Assembly (NCBI GenBank): GCA_000747625.2
Contig: JQDQ01000168.1
Location: 1-53,656, forward strand
From: Smithella sp. SCADC
Lineage (GTDB): Bacteria > Desulfobacterota > Syntrophia > Syntrophales > Smithellaceae
Direction of reading: 5' to 3'
Length of the DNA stretch: 53,656 nucleotides
A program made the position numbers and the translations under genes. Shown piece by piece: positions 1 to 13,106 of this stretch (position 1 is its first letter; each line of letters opens with the position of its first letter). The notes under the pieces were generated by a model. That model had not been told where the DNA came from. It did not search any database and was given only the letters and a program-made list of their open reading frames with translations.

Positions 1-311
1 CGTCTCGGGTACATGATCCAGGTGCCATAAATATCCGCCTGCTGCTTTTATCCATTTCCGGAAAAATTTAACAGCCCCGCTTCTTTCCACCACATTAATA
101 TCGCCAATACCAAAGAGATAGCGAAGACGATAGCCATGATGTCATGGACAGTTGCCAATCCTTTCAGTCCGCCGAAGATGGCTCCTAAAAAGTTCAGTTC
201 TTTGAACATCATCCCCAATCCGGTGAGACATAAAAGCAGGCAGGAGATGGCTAGCATCCAGTGTACAAATCTCTCATATGCTGAAGTTACTTTAACCATT
301 TTTTTACTCAT
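1..311 (-). CDS. fdnI: Formate dehydrogenase gamma subunit (cytochrome b); runs off the window edge and is frameshifted near 55-69
   Basis: ATG at 311 after GGAGG; ERFVHW..LTGL and second heme His (VHD) in TM helices; frame stops at 48 but the -1 frame (57..1) continues KWIKAAGGYLWHLDHVPET, the expected FdnI continuation. Confidence 0.85.
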
Positions 312-312
312 T

Positions 313-1119
313 TTATGCACCTCCCTGCTTCTTATTGTCTTGATCGTAATGCTCCGGATGGGGTCTGTGCGGCCCGTGGATGAAGTAATGTAACAACGAA
401 CCGCCTACCACACCGCCTGCGGCCAGCAGGCTCAGGGGCTTTAACAAGTTTTTCCACAGACCAATAGACTGCGGCACCTTCGGATCTGTCGGCAGTTCGT
501 CGTAAACTTCCGGCTTGAACTGCAGAACGTAAATAACATGCGTGCCGCCGACAAATTTATCTCCGTAAACGTTGGCGTCGCCGCCCAGTTTTTCAACCTT
601 CGCGTAAGCTTTCTTGATCATCTCGTCTTTCGGGCCGATAGTCAGTGCGCCGGTAATGCAGGATTTAACACAAGCCGGCGGAAGGTTTTCCTGAATGCGG
701 GAATAACACAAATCACATTTGGAAACCTTTTCCGTCTCTTTGTTATAGCGTGGAACATCAAACGGACAGGCCGAAATGCACTCTTTGCAGCCGATGCATT
801 TGTCACGATGAACACCCACCGTCTTGATGTCTGTATAATAAAGAGCGCCGCTGGGGCAGACCTTTACGCAGGAAGCGTCGGTACAGTGCATGCAGCCGTC
901 CTTGCGGAAGATCCACTGGAATTTGCCGTTTGCATCTCTATGTTCCTGAAAGCGCATCAGCGTCCACGTATTCCACTGCAAGTCGGGCGGATTCTGATAA
1001 GTGCCTATTTGTTTTGTCGGCAAACCGGGCAGTTCATTCCACTGCTTGCAGGCGACCTGGCAACCGCGGCAGGCGGTGCACAGGGTTGTATCAATCAATT
1101 TTACAAGTTCGTTTCCCAT
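313..1119 (-). CDS. fdnH: Formate dehydrogenase beta (Fe-S) subunit with C-terminal membrane anchor
   Basis: CTACRGCQVAC, CMHC..CVKVCP, CIGCKECISACP, CDLC..PACVKSC motifs; C-terminal TM; lies between alpha and gamma. Confidence 0.95.
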   Translation of the reverse strand: MGNELVKLIDTTLCTACRGCQVACKQWNELPGLPTKQIGTYQNPPDLQWNTWTLMRFQEHRDANGKFQWIFRKDGCMHCTDASCVKVCPSGALYYTDIKTVGVHRDKCIGCKECISACPFDVPRYNKETEKVSKCDLCYSRIQENLPPACVKSCITGALTIGPKDEMIKKAYAKVEKLGGDANVYGDKFVGGTHVIYVLQFKPEVYDELPTDPKVPQSIGLWKNLLKPLSLLAAGGVVGGSLLHYFIHGPHRPHPEHYDQDNKKQGGA

Positions 1120-1130
1120 AGTTTATTCTC

Positions 1131-4100
1131 CTATAACTTGGTTACGTTGACCATGAACGCCTTGTACTCGGGACAGAAGGTATTCGCGTCACCAACGCTT
1201 GGGGTTAAAAAGTTCGTGCTGTCATCCTTGGTGTCCTTGGGAAAGAGCCAGCCGTAATTGAAGGGCATGCCGACCTGATGCACGGTTTTTCCTTCAATCG
1301 TAAACGGTTTGAGACGCTGGGTCACCATGGCCACACAGGATGTGACTGCCCCGCGAACCGAACTGACCTTAACGTGTTCACCGTTTTTAATTCCTAATTT
1401 CTCAGCCAGTTGGCCGCCGATTTCTATATATTGTTCCGGCTGCGCTTCCAGGAGCCACGCCTGCCAACGGGTTAACGCGCCGGAGCACCAGTGCTCCGTA
1501 CAGGAATACGTTGTGCAGACATACGGGAATTTTTCGCTCGCCCTGGCTATCTTGTCCATGTCACTGTTGAAAATCTCAATAGCCGGATTGATGAGCTGGC
1601 CGGACATTGGATTTTTAGCGAGCGGTCCTTCCAGCGGTTCATAATGTTCCGGGAAGGGACCATCAGCCATATTTTGGCCGAAGAAAGCGCCCAGACCGTC
1701 TCTTTGCATGATGAAGGGATACTTGCCTTTGGCTTTATCCGCCATTGGCGGCCAGGGGCCATCGGGCACATCGCCCACCCATTTATCGCCCTTCCATTCC
1801 AGAATATTGCGTTTGGGATTGTAGGGCTTGCCGTTTAGATCAACGGAGCAACGGTTGTAAAGGATGCGGCGGTTAACCGGCCATACATAAGACCAGTTGG
1901 GATAAAGACCAAGACCTGTCGGATCATCCTTACCGCGCTTGGCCATCTTGTTTTCACCATCCGCGCCGAATTGACCGCAATGGACCCAGTTGCCGGAACA
2001 AGTTGAACCGTCGTCCTGAAGGTTGCCGAAACCCGGCACGCACTGACCTTTTTTGTATAAGATCTTCGTGCCTTTTGCCTTGTCTTCGATAACCGTATCT
2101 TTCAGGAAGCGGCCGTTCATCTGTTTGGCCACTTCCAAAGCATCAAAGTGTCCCTGCTTATCCAGATAGTCCCAGTAAAGATTCAGGATGGGTTCCGTAT
2201 GAACGCCGCCTTCCTTGGCATACAGCTTTTTAACGGCATCCATGATTTTGATCGTAATTTCGCCCACGGGAATGCACTGGTCCGGTCCGTCACAGGCCTT
2301 CTGCTTCCACTGCACCATGCGGCCGGAGTTGGAAATGCTGCCTTCCTTTTCCATGGAGGCGGAGGCGGGCAGCAGAAACACTTCCGTTTTGATATTCTTG
2401 GTATCGACACCGGGACCTCTCCAGAACTGGTAGGTTTCATTGTCGAAAATGTTTTCGCCGATGAGCCAGTCGAGTTTTTCGAGTCCCTTGCGCACCTTGC
2501 CGGTATTGGGCGAACTTACGGCGTTATCCGCGCCAATGCAGAAGAATCCCTTGATCTTGCCCTTGTACATCTGGTCGAACATATGCATCGTGGAATAGTG
2601 TTTCCCGTCGTCTATCTTGGGCAGCCAATTATAGCCGAATTCGTTTTCCTTGGTGGCTTTGTCACCGAAGAATGCTTTCATGAGGCTGTTAAAGAACTTC
2701 GGATAATTCTGGTAGTAGTTTGCTGACTGGGGATCTTTGGATACAGGCGTATATTTTGTTAAATATTTTTCCAGCGTATCGAGCGAAGCTGACGGCTGTT
2801 TCATATAACCGGGCAGGATGTGATACAAAATCGCCTGATCGGTCGAACCCTGAACATTGGGTTCGCCGCGCATGGCGTTGATGCCGCCGCCCGCGATACC
2901 CACATTGCCCAACAGCATCTGGACGAGTGTCATGGCGCGGATGTTCTCTACGCCAACGGTATGCTGCGTCCAGCCCAGGGCGTAGCACTCCGTACCTGCC
3001 TTGTCCGGAACGCCGGTGGAGCTATATATCTCGTAAACCTTGAGGAGATTTTCCTTGGACACGCCGGTAATGCTGGAAACCTTATCGAGCGTGTAGCGGG
3101 AATAGTGCGTTCTCATTAACTGGAACACACAGCGGGGATGTTGAAGTGTCATATCCCGCTGAGGAATGCCGTTGGCATCTTTATCAAAGGCCCATGTATC
3201 CTTGTTGTACTTACGCTTACCGGCATCGTAACCGGAGAAAAGACCGTCTTTAAAATAATAGTCCTTGCTCACGATAAATGAAGCGTGGGTGTAATTGAGG
3301 ACATATTCCTTAAAATATTTTTTCTTCTCAATAATGTAGTTGATCATACCGCCCAGGAAAGGGATGTCCGTGCCGGAACGAAGCGGCACATGGAAATCAC
3401 AGCGGGCGGATGTCCGGGTAAAGCGCGGATCGACATGAATCACCTTGGCTCCTTTTTCCTGGGCCTTCGTGACCCACCTGAAGCCCATGGGGTGATTCTC
3501 CGCCATGTTGCTCCCCATGATGAGGATGACATCAGCATTTTTCATGTCAATATAATGGTTTGTCATGGAACCGCGTCCGAAAGACTCGGCCAAAGCTCCG
3601 ACGGATGGGCTATGGCAAACCCGGGCCTGGTGATCCATATAGACGATGCCCAGAGCGCGCGACATAGCGGTTATCAGCCAGCACTCCTCGTTGTCCACAT
3701 TGGAACTGCCATAATGGCCGATCGCTTCGCAGCGGTTGACCAGTTCGCCCTTGGCATTTGTCTTGATGAAATTCTTGTCGCGGGTGTCCTTGATCAGTCT
3801 GGCCATCCGGGGCAGTGCCCACTCCCAGTCCTTTTCCTCCCATTTGTCACCGCCGGGCCTGCGATAGAGAACCTTGCGCAGGCGGTGTTCGTTGGCCTCC
3901 GTCATCTGAAAGAAACCGGACCCCTTGGCGCAAAGCGCTCCCTCGTTGATCGGATGGTCGGCGTCGCCTTCAATGTTGATGATCTTGTTGGTTGCCTTGT
4001 CCGTGCTACAAACGAGCCCGCAGCCGCAGGAACAGTAACAACAAATCGTCGTTGTCTGTTTGGCGATCTTGACGCGGTTCATCTTGTTCAATTCGTCCGC

Positions 4101-4202
4101 ATAAGCCCGAGTCGGACTGAGATTGAACCCCAGAGACGACAGGGCAACCCCGCCTCCGACAGCCCCGGACACCTTCAAAAAACCTCTTCTGCTGATGTTC
4201 AT
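1131..4202 (-). CDS. fdnG: Formate dehydrogenase-N type alpha subunit, Tat-exported, Cys (not Sec) ligand
   Basis: SRRGFLK Tat motif; CCYCSCGC..C Fe-S motif; HQARVCHSPSV active site; RGEPNVQGSTD; C-terminal PEYKAFMVNV. Confidence 0.97.
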   Translation of the reverse strand: MNISRRGFLKVSGAVGGGVALSSLGFNLSPTRAYADELNKMNRVKIAKQTTTICCYCSCGCGLVCSTDKATNKIINIEGDADHPINEGALCAKGSGFFQMTEANEHRLRKVLYRRPGGDKWEEKDWEWALPRMARLIKDTRDKNFIKTNAKGELVNRCEAIGHYGSSNVDNEECWLITAMSRALGIVYMDHQARVCHSPSVGALAESFGRGSMTNHYIDMKNADVILIMGSNMAENHPMGFRWVTKAQEKGAKVIHVDPRFTRTSARCDFHVPLRSGTDIPFLGGMINYIIEKKKYFKEYVLNYTHASFIVSKDYYFKDGLFSGYDAGKRKYNKDTWAFDKDANGIPQRDMTLQHPRCVFQLMRTHYSRYTLDKVSSITGVSKENLLKVYEIYSSTGVPDKAGTECYALGWTQHTVGVENIRAMTLVQMLLGNVGIAGGGINAMRGEPNVQGSTDQAILYHILPGYMKQPSASLDTLEKYLTKYTPVSKDPQSANYYQNYPKFFNSLMKAFFGDKATKENEFGYNWLPKIDDGKHYSTMHMFDQMYKGKIKGFFCIGADNAVSSPNTGKVRKGLEKLDWLIGENIFDNETYQFWRGPGVDTKNIKTEVFLLPASASMEKEGSISNSGRMVQWKQKACDGPDQCIPVGEITIKIMDAVKKLYAKEGGVHTEPILNLYWDYLDKQGHFDALEVAKQMNGRFLKDTVIEDKAKGTKILYKKGQCVPGFGNLQDDGSTCSGNWVHCGQFGADGENKMAKRGKDDPTGLGLYPNWSYVWPVNRRILYNRCSVDLNGKPYNPKRNILEWKGDKWVGDVPDGPWPPMADKAKGKYPFIMQRDGLGAFFGQNMADGPFPEHYEPLEGPLAKNPMSGQLINPAIEIFNSDMDKIARASEKFPYVCTTYSCTEHWCSGALTRWQAWLLEAQPEQYIEIGGQLAEKLGIKNGEHVKVSSVRGAVTSCVAMVTQRLKPFTIEGKTVHQVGMPFNYGWLFPKDTKDDSTNFLTPSVGDANTFCPEYKAFMVNVTKL

Positions 4203-4495
4203 GAACTTCTTCTCCTTTCCCGAAATTTAAAAATCTCCATTTAAGAGCGCATCTTCCCAAAACTTGAAAAGATGCTGTTACAGCTAAACTTAGCTATTGC
4301 TGCCGGCGATCACGACCGGCGCAAGTTGCGTGTTCAGAAAATTATGAAGAATGCGGGTTTGGATTTTGACAACCAAACACGGCCTCCTTCCTGTTCATTG
4401 CCGCCTTTCCGCGGCAGAACATGCTGGAAGCTAGTTGGTCTGCGGGAGGAAAGAAGCGGCAGGACTATCCGTTCGGAACCTTACAGGTTCCTTAA
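4203..4495 (-). promoter_or_regulatory. Highly structured 5' leader of the fdn operon with an internal SD and short uORF candidates
   Basis: Several hairpins on the minus strand (GGAACCT-GTA-AGGTTCC; TGCCGC-GGAAAG-GCGGCA; GCCGG-T-CG-TGAT-CG-CCGGC; TAGCTA-AGTT-TAGCTG; GCATCTTTTCAA-GTT-TTGGGAAGATGC); AAGGAGG at 4389-4383. Confidence 0.6.
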
Positions 4496-4848
4496 CGATA
4501 GATCATGTGCGATAGTTTTTAAATAAAGCTGACATTGCCTTTCCCTTTTTTTATCTATATCAATTGCGGGATACCGTGACCGAAAGTCATATAAAAGTCA
4601 ATATGTTATATAAAGCATAAATACAAAAAAGACATCAGCGTTTAATTTTTTATCAATGATAATAATAAGATAAATGGTATCGCGTTCGTTGGATAGGGGA
4701 TAGTGATTATATCTTAAAGATATACGAATTATTCCTAATATTTATTTATGTTTTTTTTGATAATAATGTTAAAATAACAAAAAATTAAAGGTCACGTACC
4801 TGATGTTATATTTTAAACCTCTAATAAAATCATACAAAGGAGGATGTC

Positions 4849-5058
4849 ATGAAGTACGGTGCAAGAAATCAAATTGTCGGGAAAGTGGAAAGCATTAAGA
4901 AAGGCGCGGTCATGTGCGAGGTTAAAGTAAAAACCGCGGGCGGCGATTTTATGGAATCGGTCATGACAACGAACTCGCTGAAAGAACTGGGCATTAAGAA
5001 AGGCGATAAGGTTAAAGTTGTGGTCAAAGCGGTAAATGTTTTGCTGGTCAAAGAATAG
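4849..5058 (+). CDS. mop: Molbindin / Mop (single TOBE domain) molybdate/tungstate-binding protein
   Basis: 69 aa; GARNQIVGKV..SVMT..S.KELG.K.GD.V.VVVKA; GGAGG SD. Confidence 0.92.
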   Translation: MKYGARNQIVGKVESIKKGAVMCEVKVKTAGGDFMESVMTTNSLKELGIKKGDKVKVVVKAVNVLLVKE

Positions 5059-5148
5059 TAAAAATTTAAGAGGCACCTTTCTTAGCGAATGGCGGCTCTT
5101 TTTTTGCAATTCTTTTAAAAGGGAAGGAAAATACCTTCCCCGGAGAAT

Positions 5149-5466
5149 CTAGCAACTGCAACATGATCCGCAATTGCCGCCTGTTGCAGGAGCGAGGCTG
5201 GACGTTAATTTAAATCCGGACCCGTGTGGCGTATCCAAAAAATCAACACTGATCGGTTTTGCTTGATTCAATATGTCCTTATCAATAACAAATTTTATTC
5301 CTTTTTCTTCAAACACTTCATCATCGCTGCCCGGATCATCCAGAGCCATTCCCAAAGCGGGACCGGCGCAGCCCATAGACAATGTAATCCGCACAGCGGA
5401 ATCGGTTTTCTTTTCCCTAATGAAGTCTTTAATTACTTCTGACGCCTTTTCTGTAACGGTGAGCAT
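5149..5466 (-). CDS. HesB/IscA-like Fe-S biogenesis protein, Cys form of the HesB-like selenoprotein family
   Basis: MLTVTEKA, MGCAGPALGMALD, C-terminal CGSCCSC; GAGGAGG SD. Confidence 0.88.
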   Translation of the reverse strand: MLTVTEKASEVIKDFIREKKTDSAVRITLSMGCAGPALGMALDDPGSDDEVFEEKGIKFVIDKDILNQAKPISVDFLDTPHGSGFKLTSSLAPATGGNCGSCCSC

Positions 5467-5706
5467 TAAATTTCCTCCTCTTTGAGTGAATATTGTTATT
5501 CACCTTTGCTCGTAACATATCCATGCTTCATCATAAGTCAATCAAATTATTGTTTTTGTATATCTTGCCCAGGAAAAACGCGAATTGACTTGAAAATAAA
5601 ATGAATAATACATCCATATATATTCCTTTTAGTTATTTGACATATTCTTTCATATCATATATAGCTGCCGCGAATCAATGATTATTATCCAATGGAAGGA
5701 GAATAT

Positions 5707-6144
5707 ATGGCTGAAAATATAGCAAGCAAAGAGTGGGAACCGAAAATCGCTGCCATCGTCTGCAACTGGTGTACTTACGCGGGCGCCGATCTGGCGGGCA
5801 TCAGCAGAATTCAGTATCCGCCGAATGTGCGTGTTATCCGCGTTCCCTGCACGGGAAGAATAAATCCTTTTTATATTGTCAAGGCCCTTCAGGAAGGCGC
5901 CGATGGCGTTCTGGTTTCCGGTTGTCATCCGGGTGAATGCCACTATATATCGGGAAATCTGGTTGCGCGCCGCAAGTTTGCGATGCTGAAAAGTTTTCTG
6001 AATTACATCGGCATAGAAGGCGACAGAACCATGTTTACCTGGGTGTCTGCTTCTGAAGGCGATCGTTTTGCCCAGGTCATCAAAGGCGTTACGGCCAAGG
6101 TCAAGGCGCTGGGACCTGCGAGCAAGTTGGTAAAGAAACTTTAG
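5707..6144 (+). CDS. mvhD: MvhD/FlpD [2Fe-2S] subunit (methyl-viologen-reducing hydrogenase delta), stand-alone
   Basis: CNWCTYAGAD, RVPCTGR, GADGVLVSGCHPGECHY, WVSASEG; ATG 5707 after AAGGAG. Confidence 0.92.
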   Translation: MAENIASKEWEPKIAAIVCNWCTYAGADLAGISRIQYPPNVRVIRVPCTGRINPFYIVKALQEGADGVLVSGCHPGECHYISGNLVARRKFAMLKSFLNYIGIEGDRTMFTWVSASEGDRFAQVIKGVTAKVKALGPASKLVKKL

Positions 6145-6789: not shown

Positions 6790-7899
6790 ATGACTCAGTA
6801 TTTATGGAAACGTCCTGATTGGACTCATTTCAGATGGAAGAATGAAGACATTCTTTTTGCGCTTGGTGAATGCCGGTTGCTGCAGGGAAAACTCTTGAGT
6901 AAAGTGACCGATCTTGGATTTCTCCACGAAAACCAGGCCCAGCTTGAAATATTAACTGGGGAGACCTTAAAAACCGCCTTAATCGAAGGCGAGAGCCTCA
7001 ATGCTCAGACCGTTAGATCGTCGGTTGCAAGAAAGCTCGGGCTCCTTTCGGCGGGACTGAGAGTAGACCATTATATTGACGGACTCGTCTCTATTCTCCT
7101 TGATGCCACAAAAAATCATGATGAACCTCTTACACAGAAACGTCTTTTCGGCTGGCAGGCGGCACTTTTTCCGACGGGCTATTCCGGTATCCACAAAATC
7201 AGAGTAGGTAAATGGCGGGGGGATAAGCCCATGCGCGTCGTGTCGGGTCCCGTCGGTCATGAAAATATTCATTTTGAAGCGCCTCCCTCTGAGCGCATAC
7301 CCGTGGAAATAGGCTGGTTTCTTGAATGGTGGAAGGTGAGCCGGGGCAATTTGGAAGGATTGTTGCGGGCGGCCATTGCTCAATTCTGGTTTGTGACCAT
7401 CCATCCATTCGAGGATGGCAACGGCCGTATCGCCAGAGCCTTGACCGATATGGCCCTGTCACAGGATGACCGGCAATCGATAAGGTATTATAGTCTTTCT
7501 TCTCAAATTATGGCAGAGCGGAATGCCTATTATAATGTTCTTGAATACTGCCAGAAGCATGATGGCGACATTACGGAATGGCTCAATTGGTTTCTTGGCT
7601 GTTTCTGCAGGGCCATCAAGAGTTCTGAAGAAATGTTGGCGACAGTCCTTAATAAGGCCTCATTCTGGAAATCACATTCGAACTTTTCACTAACGGAGCG
7701 GCAGCGTAAAGTCATAAACCGGTTGCTCGATGCAGGAAAGGGCGGTTTTACAGGTGGACTTACAACCAAAAAATATGTTTCTCTGGCCAAAGTCAGCAGA
7801 GCTACAGCCTTTAGGGAGATAGAGCACCTTATGAAACTTGGAATACTTAAACAGAATCCCGGCAGAGGCAGGAATGTAAGCTATGATTTGAATTGGTAG
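6790..7899 (+). CDS. Fic family protein (DUF4172-type N-terminus, Fic domain, C-terminal winged HTH)
   Basis: W..PDW..F.W N-terminus; HPFEDGNGRIAR Fic motif; VSRATAFREI HTH. Confidence 0.92.
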   Translation: MTQYLWKRPDWTHFRWKNEDILFALGECRLLQGKLLSKVTDLGFLHENQAQLEILTGETLKTALIEGESLNAQTVRSSVARKLGLLSAGLRVDHYIDGLVSILLDATKNHDEPLTQKRLFGWQAALFPTGYSGIHKIRVGKWRGDKPMRVVSGPVGHENIHFEAPPSERIPVEIGWFLEWWKVSRGNLEGLLRAAIAQFWFVTIHPFEDGNGRIARALTDMALSQDDRQSIRYYSLSSQIMAERNAYYNVLEYCQKHDGDITEWLNWFLGCFCRAIKSSEEMLATVLNKASFWKSHSNFSLTERQRKVINRLLDAGKGGFTGGLTTKKYVSLAKVSRATAFREIEHLMKLGILKQNPGRGRNVSYDLNW

Positions 7900-12203: not shown

Positions 12204-13106
12204 ATGCAGGCGAAGACTACAATTTTAAGTTTACCGGCAGAAGAATTTGTCCATCCGGGAACAAGAGCATGTACCGGATGCGCCCTGGCCATCGCCTACC
12301 GGATAGGCCTCAAGGCTCTGGGTAAGGATACGATCCTTGTTGTGCCGCCGAGTTGTCTTACGGTGCTTCAGGGACTCTTTCCGATTGCCTCGACAAAGCT
12401 TCCCTGCCTGAATGTAACCTTTGCCTCCACAGCCGCCGCCGCCACAGGAATTCTGGCCACACTGAAGGTACAGGGCAGGGATAAGATTAAAGTGGCCGCA
12501 TGGGCAGGAGACGGCGGAACGAGCGACATCGGTTTGCAGGCTTTATCGGGCGCGGCAGAACGTGGCGATAAATTCATCTATCTTTGCTACGATAATGAAG
12601 GGTATATGAACACCGGTGTTCAACGCTCAGGCACGACCCCGATCGGCGCCATCACCGCCAATACGCCGTTCAAGGGAAAGCTGCAGCAGAAAAAAGATGT
12701 GCCGGCAATCATGGCGGCGCATAAGTTAAGCTATGTTGCCACCTGCTCTGCCGCCTACCCGCTGGATCTTTTCGACAAGATAAGAAAATGCGTTGATCTG
12801 CCGGGCACCAAATACATTCACATCCATATTCCCTGCCCGCCGGGCTGGGGATATGACCCTCGCTATGGAATAAAAATCGGACGGCTGGCCGTGGAAACCG
12901 GATATTATGATCTCTATGAAATAATCAACGGCGAGTTCAAATTGACTGCCGCATCAGAAAAGCTGGTGGAAAAACACAAGCTGATACCGGTGCGTGAATA
13001 CTTCCGCACGCAGTCGCGTTTTAAAGTTCTTACGGATGCACAAATAACCGATATTCAAAAAGAGATCGATAAGAAATGGAATGAGTATTACAAAAAGGAA
13101 GATTGA
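12204..13106 (+). CDS. porB: 2-oxoacid:ferredoxin oxidoreductase beta (TPP-binding) subunit
   Basis: ACTGC, GDGG..DIG.QALSG, DNEGYMNTG.QRS, PCPPGW; ATG after AGGAG. Confidence 0.9.
   Translation: MQAKTTILSLPAEEFVHPGTRACTGCALAIAYRIGLKALGKDTILVVPPSCLTVLQGLFPIASTKLPCLNVTFASTAAAATGILATLKVQGRDKIKVAAWAGDGGTSDIGLQALSGAAERGDKFIYLCYDNEGYMNTGVQRSGTTPIGAITANTPFKGKLQQKKDVPAIMAAHKLSYVATCSAAYPLDLFDKIRKCVDLPGTKYIHIHIPCPPGWGYDPRYGIKIGRLAVETGYYDLYEIINGEFKLTAASEKLVEKHKLIPVREYFRTQSRFKVLTDAQITDIQKEIDKKWNEYYKKED

Follow-up and report, generated by a model that had tools for sequence, protein, structure and literature searches.

Smithella sp. SCADC encodes three periplasmic formate dehydrogenase (FDH) alpha subunits, two with selenocysteine (Sec) and one with cysteine at the catalytic site, which raises the question of how the cell chooses between them. 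We analysed contig JQDQ01000168.1 of assembly GCA_000747625.2 (53,656 nucleotides; this whole stretch of DNA is called the window below), on the minus strand of which the Cys-type gene, fdnG, heads an operon preceded by a leader. An earlier reading, made from the sequence alone, had proposed that this leader senses Sec by means of an upstream open reading frame (uORF) with UGA codons, located within 4203-4460. The leader type is supported by our analysis; the uORF named was the wrong one, and the real candidate, uORF1 (4535-4503), lies outside that interval, which corresponds to the 3' two-thirds of the operon leader. uORF1 belongs to a conserved element of about 200 nucleotides (nt), 4552-4350 on the minus strand. 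Comparison of related sequences indicates that this element is probably a cis-acting leader that reports the capacity of the cell to decode UGA as Sec. Coordinates of the features discussed are collected in Table 1.

Discovery and spread of the element

The 116 genomes of the family were searched with the leader DNA. A promoter box at the 5' end of the query was matched in most of the 68 genomes that gave hits, and the approximately 230 nt that follow the box (~4579-4350) recur in only ten loci. In these ten related leaders the similarity to the window stops near 4350. Two covariance models were built, model 1 from the 11 leaders and model 2 from an alignment of 41 core sequences. The element was matched in 12 of the 116 genomes of the family, in 23 of 151 sampled genomes of the order and in 31 of 151 genomes of the class, which in this sample is represented by the same single order. 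Among 151 genomes of the phylum there were three with matches, one of them outside the order and weak (E 2e-4). In total, 47 genomes, nearly all of one order, yielded 61 complete or almost complete copies and 2 partial ones.

The Smithella sp. SCADC genome has a single copy, and its two yedE genes have no element upstream, even with search filters off. In one genus all seven genomes have the element, in as many as four tandem copies spaced by about 5 kb. Three or four such copies are found at G198:C37 3427-19714 and G171:C1 913753-924194, where each leader heads its own operon with an HdrA-like or FDH gene that carries no TGA. The two partial copies, L054 (G017:C72 698-824) and L056 (G031:C75 9072-9210), consist only of uORF1 and the hairpin that follows it, and L056 has TTA in place of TGA; they are probably decayed copies.

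The upstream ORF and its UGA codon

The TGA that ends uORF1 is kept in 42 of the 43 matches of model 1, the single exception being the partial copy with TTA, and it stands at the same place, as aligned, in 20 further matches. Across the 41 core sequences, which have a mean column identity of 55%, nine columns are invariant, and three of these are the U, G and A of the uORF1 stop codon. We also examined the position of the start codon in 59 copies (the 61 copies minus two for which the script found no perfect stem). In 48 of the 59, an in-frame ATG is located 21-48 nt before the UGA, compared with 4 and 1 for the other two frames, and most copies that lack an in-frame ATG have an in-frame GTG instead. 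The ATG may be 30, 33, 36, 42 or 45 nt from the UGA, varying by lineage; therefore it is the frame, and not a fixed position, that is conserved. By the nearest-ATG reading uORF1 is 10-12 codons long, and in the 61 copies it is placed between the promoter box and the genes.

The frame also remains open beyond the UGA. A stop within 20 codons after the UGA occurs in none of the 41 sequences in the uORF1 frame, whereas the two alternative frames contain one in 13 and in 40 of the 41. The second in-frame stop comes after exactly 23 codons (a TAG) in 33 sequences, after 20 codons in 7 and after 32 codons in 1. The peptide that the extension would encode has conserved residues (..RE.G.F..PQT). As far as can be judged by eye, its substitutions are not biased to third codon positions, and compensatory changes in the RNA stems alter the peptide. 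Read from these alignments, the pattern is what a translated frame containing a recoding site would show.

Hairpin P1 resembles a bacterial SECIS element

The UGA is directly followed by a two-part hairpin, P1, whose upper stem is the best-conserved helix of the element: 98.4% of its alignment cells are paired and all six pairs are changed on both sides. For the lower stem, compensatory changes are seen when the 11 leaders are aligned, but pairing is only 42% in the MAFFT alignment of 41 sequences. Another invariant column, among the nine, is G 4484 of the loop. Measured from the UGA, the stem begins after 9-11 nt and the loop after 16-17 nt, each in 57 of 59 copies. In E. coli the rule for a selenocysteine insertion sequence (SECIS) is a 17-nt stem-loop located 11 nt after the UGA, and the geometry of P1 agrees with that of bacterial SECIS elements. 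With an in-frame UGA, a hairpin at a fixed distance and a G early in a small loop, P1 fits a loose sequence definition of such an element. The conserved G of the SECIS loop is named in a figure legend (PMC1794560).

A hairpin of this kind might also serve as an operator at which no decoding occurs. SelB-GTP-Sec-tRNA bound to P1 would then block or remodel the leader, and the uORF and its UGA would only load or stop ribosomes. The exceptional conservation of P1 and its invariant loop G would suit such a role, and there is a precedent in E. coli, where a SECIS-like element in the 5' untranslated region of selAB is bound by SelB and Sec-tRNA and translation is repressed (original work as cited in bioRxiv 10.64898/2026.03.03.709296). 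However, an operator leaves unexplained the constant 16-17 nt between UGA and loop, the in-frame start codon and the 20-23 open codons that lead to a conserved stop, and P1 is about 90 nt from the Shine-Dalgarno (SD) sequence that would be regulated, not adjacent to it. We consider this explanation improbable.

Structure of the leader RNA

The element is a structured RNA with four covarying helices, P1 to P4. Pairs were counted on the MAFFT alignment of the 41 cores, made without reference to a structure. In the fold comprising P1, P2, P3 and P4, 78.6% of the cells are paired, as against 39-48% in slid controls, and 24 of the 33 pairs have changes on both sides. None of 500 shuffles reaches the observed value for any of five measures.

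Between P1 and the long P2/P3 hairpin lies a tract, A, that averages 46% C and 15% G in the 41 sequences. Tract A holds an anti-SD-like CCUCC (4449-4445), a copy of the P3 5' arm, UGCCGC (4461-4456), the sequence CAGACC (4442-4437) and the most conserved block, CGCAGACC. It could pair alternatively with the P3 3' arm, the GGAGG box of P2 or the P4 5' arm, and these alternative pairings are possible in 79% of cells, compared with 42-60% in slid controls. As a hypothesis, tract A looks like a decoy strand.

Four covarying helices together with invariant unpaired blocks such as CGCAGACC are also what is seen in aptamers. The leader might accordingly be a riboswitch for a selenium compound or another ligand, or a protein-bound leader, with uORF1 incidental to it. 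In 4 of 12 related loci a molybdenum cofactor (Moco)/tungsten-cofactor aptamer, RF01055, is found between the leader and the FDH gene with scores of 60-68 bits, and tandem placement with a riboswitch is a typical riboswitch arrangement; in these loci the leader and the aptamer are two sensors in series on one mRNA. The sequence-only reading had itself named a known cofactor RNA as something that could account for the structure. None was found in the leader: RF01055 is not matched in the window, the leader gives no match to any Rfam family (with E values of up to 10 allowed for 3900-5200, and at the gathering score over the whole window), and neither does the element itself in the 12 related loci. 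The frame statistics of uORF1 point to translation. A third possibility is that the 34-residue product of uORF1 is itself a functional small selenoprotein, as the conserved residues of the extension might suggest; the lack of third-position bias and the stem changes that alter the peptide argue otherwise. We regard a riboswitch, a protein-bound leader and a functional selenopeptide, even taken together, as very improbable.

The second ORF and the expression platform

The output of the element appears to be a second frame, ORF2. A purine box, a spacer of 3-10 nt (5-6 in most) and UUG-G are found in 44 of the 61 copies. In the other 17, examined by eye, the start position holds UUG in about 5, AUG in 4, GUG in 2-3, CUG in 2 and nothing obvious in 2. 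Because UUG, AUG and GUG interchange at one position, this is likely to be a real translation start. In L068, L072 and L074 ORF2 is the 167-170 amino acid (aa) MauE/DoxX-like gene itself; elsewhere it is a short frame of 9-82 codons. Before yedE in L067 and L098, ORF2 is a 64-78 aa remnant of the MauE/DoxX-like protein, and this sequence similarity suggests that the yedE leaders may have been derived from a MauE-rhodanese operon. Because the SD of ORF2 sits in P2 and its start codon in P4, the switch most likely acts on the initiation of ORF2 translation, and transcription would follow through coupling. A scan for hairpin-plus-U terminators found no credible candidate in the 330 nt after 43 copies.

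The SD of ORF2 in the window, AAGGAGG (4389-4383), kept in relatives as a GGAGG box, had been assigned by the sequence-only reading to a different frame, one that opens with TTG at 4372, runs through MSKSKPAFFIIF-TGA(4336) and reaches a second UGA at 4312, with two "SECIS-like" hairpins (among them GCGCCGG..CCGGC) that would together form the selenium sensor. Read directly on the minus strand of the window, the features it listed are all where it had placed them, including an alternative GTG frame at 4380 of 12 codons, and the region is strongly folded. Conservation is another matter. TTG 4372 is kept as a start in 3 of the 11 related leaders aligned, the UGAs at 4336 and 4312 fall in a region that has no alignable counterpart in relatives, even before an fdnG orthologue of 92% identity, and the two hairpins are likewise not conserved. 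The SD serves the conserved UUG at 4376 instead, as a caveat to that reading had foreseen when it pointed out that a better-spaced TTG at 4376 (28 codons) fits the same SD. A selenium sensor made of TTG 4372 and its two UGAs has next to no credence left.

Downstream of the element, the window appears to have an expression platform of its own. The segment 4354-4333, which is crossed by ORF2, has the fdnG ribosome-binding site (4223-4205) as its predicted pairing partner, and the two enclose three local hairpins, two of which are the "SECIS-like" ones just mentioned. The minimum free energy of the stretch 4354-4203 is -52.2 kcal/mol (z -5.25), and none of 200 shuffles is as good. A similar long-range closure is predicted in 9 of 20 leaders, in which over half of the predicted pairing of the main SD is to the first 40 nt after the element.

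Genes downstream of the element

Genes downstream of the 61 copies were assigned by family scans. The largest group, 16 copies, heads genes for YedE, the putative selenium transporter (TIGR04112), all scoring far above the cut-off. Periplasmic FDH alpha subunits follow 12 copies, cytoplasmic NuoG-like FdhA 4 and HdrA-like proteins 9. YedF (TIGR03527), succeeded by a small DUF3343-like frame, follows 2 copies and SelD 1. Six copies precede a MauE/DoxX-like membrane protein and/or a periplasmic rhodanese; the leader-headed rhodanese is related to the N-terminus of the selenoprotein TsoB and has a Cys active-site loop. An acyl-CoA-dehydratase-type activase and/or a double-cubane-cluster reductase is found behind 7 copies (L096, L100, L118, L123, L111, L112 and L113). 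The remainder comprise a radical-SAM protein (1), a lipoprotein (1) and two copies with no assignable downstream gene. YedE, YedF and DUF3343 have been proposed as selenium genes on other grounds (PMC5322559). We know of no stated link between the activase or double-cubane reductase enzymes and selenium; these enzymes could be substitutes that do without selenium, or could act in the reduction of a selenium compound.

The enzymes behind the element differ from their paralogues elsewhere. Cys is found at the catalytic site in all 14 leader-headed FDH genes whose site lies inside the fetched locus. In four genomes of the genus with tandem copies, the HdrA-like genes behind the element have no internal stop (6 of 6), while the other HdrA copies of the same genomes, which are 72-76% identical and have no element, all have one in-frame TGA (9 of 9). 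Similarly, in the Smithella genome the two fdnG paralogues without the element are of Sec type and have a short leader. The element thus marks selenium-free paralogues of selenoenzymes, together with genes for the uptake and handling of selenium.

In two genomes (G125:C43 15457-17313 and G145:C72 9956-11014) a second selB-like gene, scoring above the family cut-off, is found at a distance of 2-6 kb from the leader of yedF or yedE. It may be a dedicated SelB paralogue of the same cluster.

A proposed mechanism

From the anatomy, conservation and covariation of the element and its association with selenium genes we infer that uORF1 is translated, that Sec can be inserted at its UGA with SelB bound to P1, and that the outcome sets a switch. 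A ribosome translating uORF1 would meet the UGA with P1 at its entrance. Without Sec-tRNA(Sec)-SelB it would terminate there. With the complex, Sec would be inserted and the ribosome would continue for 23 more codons over tract A, to the UAG at the foot of P2/P3. The site at which the ribosome stops (4503 or 4431) would determine the pairing options of tract A and of the P2 5' strand, and these pairings would in turn determine access to GGAGG (4387-4383) and to UUG 4376, in P4, at the start of ORF2. ORF2 would be either the first regulated gene or, as in the window, a short frame whose translation unmasks the fdnG ribosome-binding site. We incline slightly to the view that the reading of the leader UGA as Sec or as stop decides the fate of a whole selenium-starvation regulon, the supply of Sec being measured directly at the ribosome.

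A number of observations weigh against this proposal. P1 fits only the loose definition of a SECIS element. In the SECIS elements of Sec-type HdrA and fdnG genes from the same lineage, the loop G is farther from the UGA than in P1, by 4-5 nt. The loops of these hairpins, AGGU and GGG, begin at nt ~26-27 counted from the U of UGA, compared with nt 20-21 in the leader; and although all have a G-rich loop, the P1 stem is unrelated in sequence to their stems. The frame counts overstate independence, the sequences being related and the RNA structurally conserved, and frame conservation could in part be a by-product of conservation at the RNA level. The alternative pairings of tract A are not above shuffles, 312 of 500 being as high, so that the inverter fold has no support from covariation. 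Tract A likewise shows no co-evolution with the main ribosome-binding site over 28 loci (own pairing -12.01, cross -11.99, shuffled -10.95 kcal/mol). In the window the pyrimidine tract at 4455-4444, which is kept in relatives, had been proposed to pair with the fdnG SD region; the two are complementary, with a duplex energy of -18.4 kcal/mol, and in view of the missing covariation this is generic anti-SD/SD complementarity. A consensus scan found no intrinsic terminator in 4100-5200. One leader-headed gene, the selD of L069, itself carries a TGA. selB scores above its cut-off in 141 of the 151 class genomes, so its co-occurrence with the element is uninformative. Finally, in RNA models the mean exposure of the ORF2 SD and start is 0.22 in naked RNA, 0.22 with a ribosome at the UGA and 0.24 with a ribosome on tract A, and it is a ribosome at the second stop that raises it, to 0.29; this signal is weak, and its direction is opposite to that deduced from the regulon.

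Direction of the response

If the leader does respond to Sec, we think it fairly probable, by analogy with amino-acid attenuators, that selenium sufficiency turns the regulon off, because the regulon consists of selenium-free isoenzymes and of genes for selenium uptake and trafficking. Activation by selenium, on the same supposition, seems to us a distinctly weaker candidate. It would use the same sensor in the opposite direction: a ribosome that has read through to the foot of P2 would unmask the SD and start of ORF2, either by coupling or by protecting a C-rich Rho site. In favour of it, the ORF2 SD is paired with tract A in the naked-RNA fold of the window, and exposure rises by more than 0.1 in 16 of 41 sequences with the ribosome at the second stop, compared with 2 of 41 with the ribosome at the UGA. 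Tract A, being C-rich and G-poor, also resembles a Rho loading site, and in Treponema primitia selenium allows transcription to proceed beyond the UGA of fdhFSec by way of translation coupling (PMC3892789).

However, all the regulated enzymes examined are selenium-free (14 of 14 FDH, 6 of 6 HdrA and the Cys-type rhodaneses), which is sensible only if they are needed when Sec is not available. The physiology of other organisms points the same way: when selenium is limiting, fdhFCys transcripts increase in T. primitia (PMC3892789), and in Methanococcus maripaludis the Cys isoforms and putative transporters go up (PMC11097638). Nor do the models discriminate, since forcing the pairing of tract A with P3 likewise raises SD exposure, to a mean of 0.32 (up in 16 of 39 sequences, down in 3). 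The ribosome masks would speak for activation by readthrough and the forced pairing for activation while tract A is free; with such small and mixed effects the RNA models do not fix the direction. As an account of this locus, Sec-dependent activation is on present evidence unlikely, and repression by selenium remains the reading that we prefer.

Comparison with known regulatory systems

Ribosome-mediated attenuation by leader peptides is known from the trp, his and pheA leaders and from the translational attenuators of ermC and cat. The leader described here would share with them a short leader ORF, a codon that depends on one charged tRNA and a ribosome whose position selects between folds, and tract A, the putative decoy strand, resembles the 5' arm of a downstream hairpin. 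It would differ in that the sensed codon is a UGA recoded by SelB and a SECIS element, so that scarcity leads to termination and not to stalling at a sense codon. No intrinsic terminator was found, and the apparent output is the SD and start of a second frame, whose location inside P2 and P4 would fit translational attenuation; the alternative fold is without support from covariation. The in-frame UGA followed by a hairpin with its loop G at a fixed short distance is reminiscent of the SECIS elements of selenoprotein genes such as fdhF and fdnG. However, P1 lies in a leader frame of ten codons and not in the gene of an enzyme, and the residue inserted would have no catalytic context.

The E. 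coli selAB operator is similar in having a SECIS-like leader hairpin through which Sec-charged SelB feeds back on expression. As described in a preprint (bioRxiv 10.64898/2026.03.03.709296), it lacks a uORF and a decoded UGA, blocks an SD that is 3 nt away and controls genes of Sec synthesis, whereas the present leader has an invariant UGA, lies about 90 nt from its SD and precedes Sec-free isoenzymes and selenium uptake genes. The physiological task, to use the Sec or the Cys isoform of FDH, hydrogenase or Hdr depending on selenium, is shared with the HrsM system of Methanococcus and with fdhFSec of T. primitia (PMC11097638 and PMC3892789). HrsM is a LysR-type repressor, and how selenium is sensed and signalled through it is described as unknown (PMC11097638); the sensor proposed here would be an RNA leader on the Cys genes. 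In T. primitia the effect acts inside the Sec gene itself, and no mechanism was given for fdhFCys (PMC3892789). The Moco riboswitch RF01055, in turn, is distinct from the element, being a separate downstream module in 4 of 12 related loci.

A comparative genomic study describes the selenium regulatory network as not fully understood (PMC5322559), and the words leader, riboswitch and attenuat- are absent from a review of prokaryotic selenoproteomes published in 2026. A full-text literature search, the coverage of which excluded subscription journals and supplements, gave no account of a leader of this kind. The leader thus looks like a previously undescribed form of ribosome-mediated attenuation in which a recoded stop is the sensing codon.

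Genomic context of the locus

The regulated operon comprises three FDH genes, and the product of fdnG is of the Cys type, as the sequence-only reading had it. The assembly of Smithella sp. SCADC consists of 244 contigs and is 94.7% complete with 8.2% contamination. A check for Sec genes and for a Sec-type paralogue, which had been recommended with that reading, found both. The genome encodes selA, selB (contig C211), selC (tRNA-Sec) and a Sec-type selD, the last with one in-frame TGA. ARAGORN predicts three tRNA-Sec genes on contigs C191 and C241, one contig carrying a pair of them, and four Rfam matches are above the gathering score; the three genes could represent true multiplicity or an effect of the 8% contamination. 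Two more periplasmic fdnG paralogues, 76% and 51% identical to the gene in the window, both have TGA at the catalytic position.

The promoter box, with an inverted repeat (TGACTTTCGGTCA / TGACTTTCAGTCA / TGACTATCGGTCA), is found before all three fdnG paralogues. The distance from box to start is ~60 nt in the 76% identical Sec-type paralogue on contig C58, compared with ~345 nt in the Cys-type fdnG; therefore the Cys-type copy has an extra leader module. A divergent gene of ~110 aa, whose product starts MEIK(C/Y)K(V/I)WIEK.GK, lies upstream of the C58 copy and of L040. Judged by eye, this product resembles a winged-helix regulator of the ModE type.

Genes for a HesB-like iron-sulfur (Fe-S) biogenesis protein and an MvhD/FlpD-like protein lie immediately upstream of the promoter of the leader, and neither carries a TGA. 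Both families are listed among the selenoproteins of related bacteria (Table 3 of PMC1794560). Because these genes come from selenoprotein families and yet have no TGA, the surroundings of the leader may form a small cluster of versions that do without selenium. An ORF of 84 aa on the opposite (plus) strand, 4272-4526, overlaps the leader; the minus-strand RNA and its frames suffice to explain the conservation in this region.

Table 1. Features of the fdnG leader and its surroundings. Positions are those of the window unless a contig or locus is named.
Feature	Position	Strand	Remarks
uORF1	4503..4535	minus	MSALFKNYRT-UGA; ATG TCA GCT TTA TTT AAA AAC TAT CGC ACA TGA; ten sense codons
SD-like sequence before uORF1	4545-4538	minus	GGGAAAGG; purine-rich
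uORF1 UGA	4505-4503	minus	
In-frame extension of uORF1 if UGA is decoded	4431..4502	minus	23 codons to conserved UAG 4433-4431, at the foot of P2
P1	4465..4501	minus	SECIS-like two-part hairpin, right after UGA
P1 lower stem	4501-4497/4469-4465	minus	
P1 upper stem	4491-4486/4480-4475	minus	GGAACC/GGUUCC; 6 bp, 11 nt after UGA
P1 loop	4485-4481	minus	UGUAA; invariant G 4484 is the second loop nucleotide
Tract A	4434..4463	minus	CCUGCCGCUUCUUUCCUCCCGCAGACCAAC; C-rich, G-poor; unpaired in consensus fold
P2/P3 long hairpin	4383..4430	minus	3' strand holds AAGGAGG 4389-4383, SD of ORF2
P2 outer	4430-4426/4387-4383	minus	CUUCC/GGAGG
P2 inner	4423-4419/4394-4390	minus	77.8% paired; 5 of 5 pairs changed on both sides
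P3	4416-4411/4404-4399	minus	UGCCGC/GCGGCA; 95.1% paired
P4	4378-4373/4362-4357	minus	GUUUGG/CCAAAC; 80-88% paired; compensatory changes; 14 extra pair types
ORF2	4290..4376	minus	start UUG 4376-4374, six nt after SD, in P4 5' arm; 28 codons to UAA 4292-4290
Window-specific expression platform	4205..4354	minus	predicted; sequence not conserved
Promoter/operator box	4548..4621	minus	TATATAACATATTGACTTTTATATGACTTTCGGTCA...; from DNA search of family genomes; by eye before C58 and C187 fdnG
Promoter box copy	contig C58 ~7190-7270		elsewhere in genome
Promoter box copy	contig C187 ~12820-12850		elsewhere in genome
Regulated FDH operon	48..4202	minus	three genes
fdnG, Cys-type periplasmic FDH alpha subunit	4202-1131	minus	Pfam; twin-arginine translocation signal; catalytic Cys196 (HQARVCHSPS)
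FDH Fe-S subunit	1119-313	minus	Pfam
FDH cytochrome b	320-48	minus	Pfam
HesB-like Fe-S biogenesis protein	5149-5466	minus	
MvhD/FlpD-like protein	5692-6144	plus	
RF01055 aptamer	L080 1213-1331		
RF01055 aptamer	L081 1872-1989		
RF01055 aptamer	L062 1885-2003		
RF01055 aptamer	L049 1238-1352		

Implications

If the proposal is correct, the leader would be the first selenium sensor to act in cis, and no earlier attenuator would have had a recoded stop as the sensing codon. The quantity sensed would be the actual capacity to decode UGA as Sec, and this would provide an answer to the question of how bacteria choose between Sec and Cys enzymes. So compact a Sec-dependent switch might also find use as a selenium biosensor. 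As a cis-element, the leader defines a selenium regulon and provides a separate line of evidence that YedE, YedF and the small DUF3343-like protein are encoded by selenium genes. New candidates are also brought forward, namely the MauE/DoxX-like membrane protein with its rhodanese and the double-cubane reductase with its activase. For the syntrophic bacteria that carry it, the element would mark those FDH and Hdr paralogues that are used when selenium is scarce.

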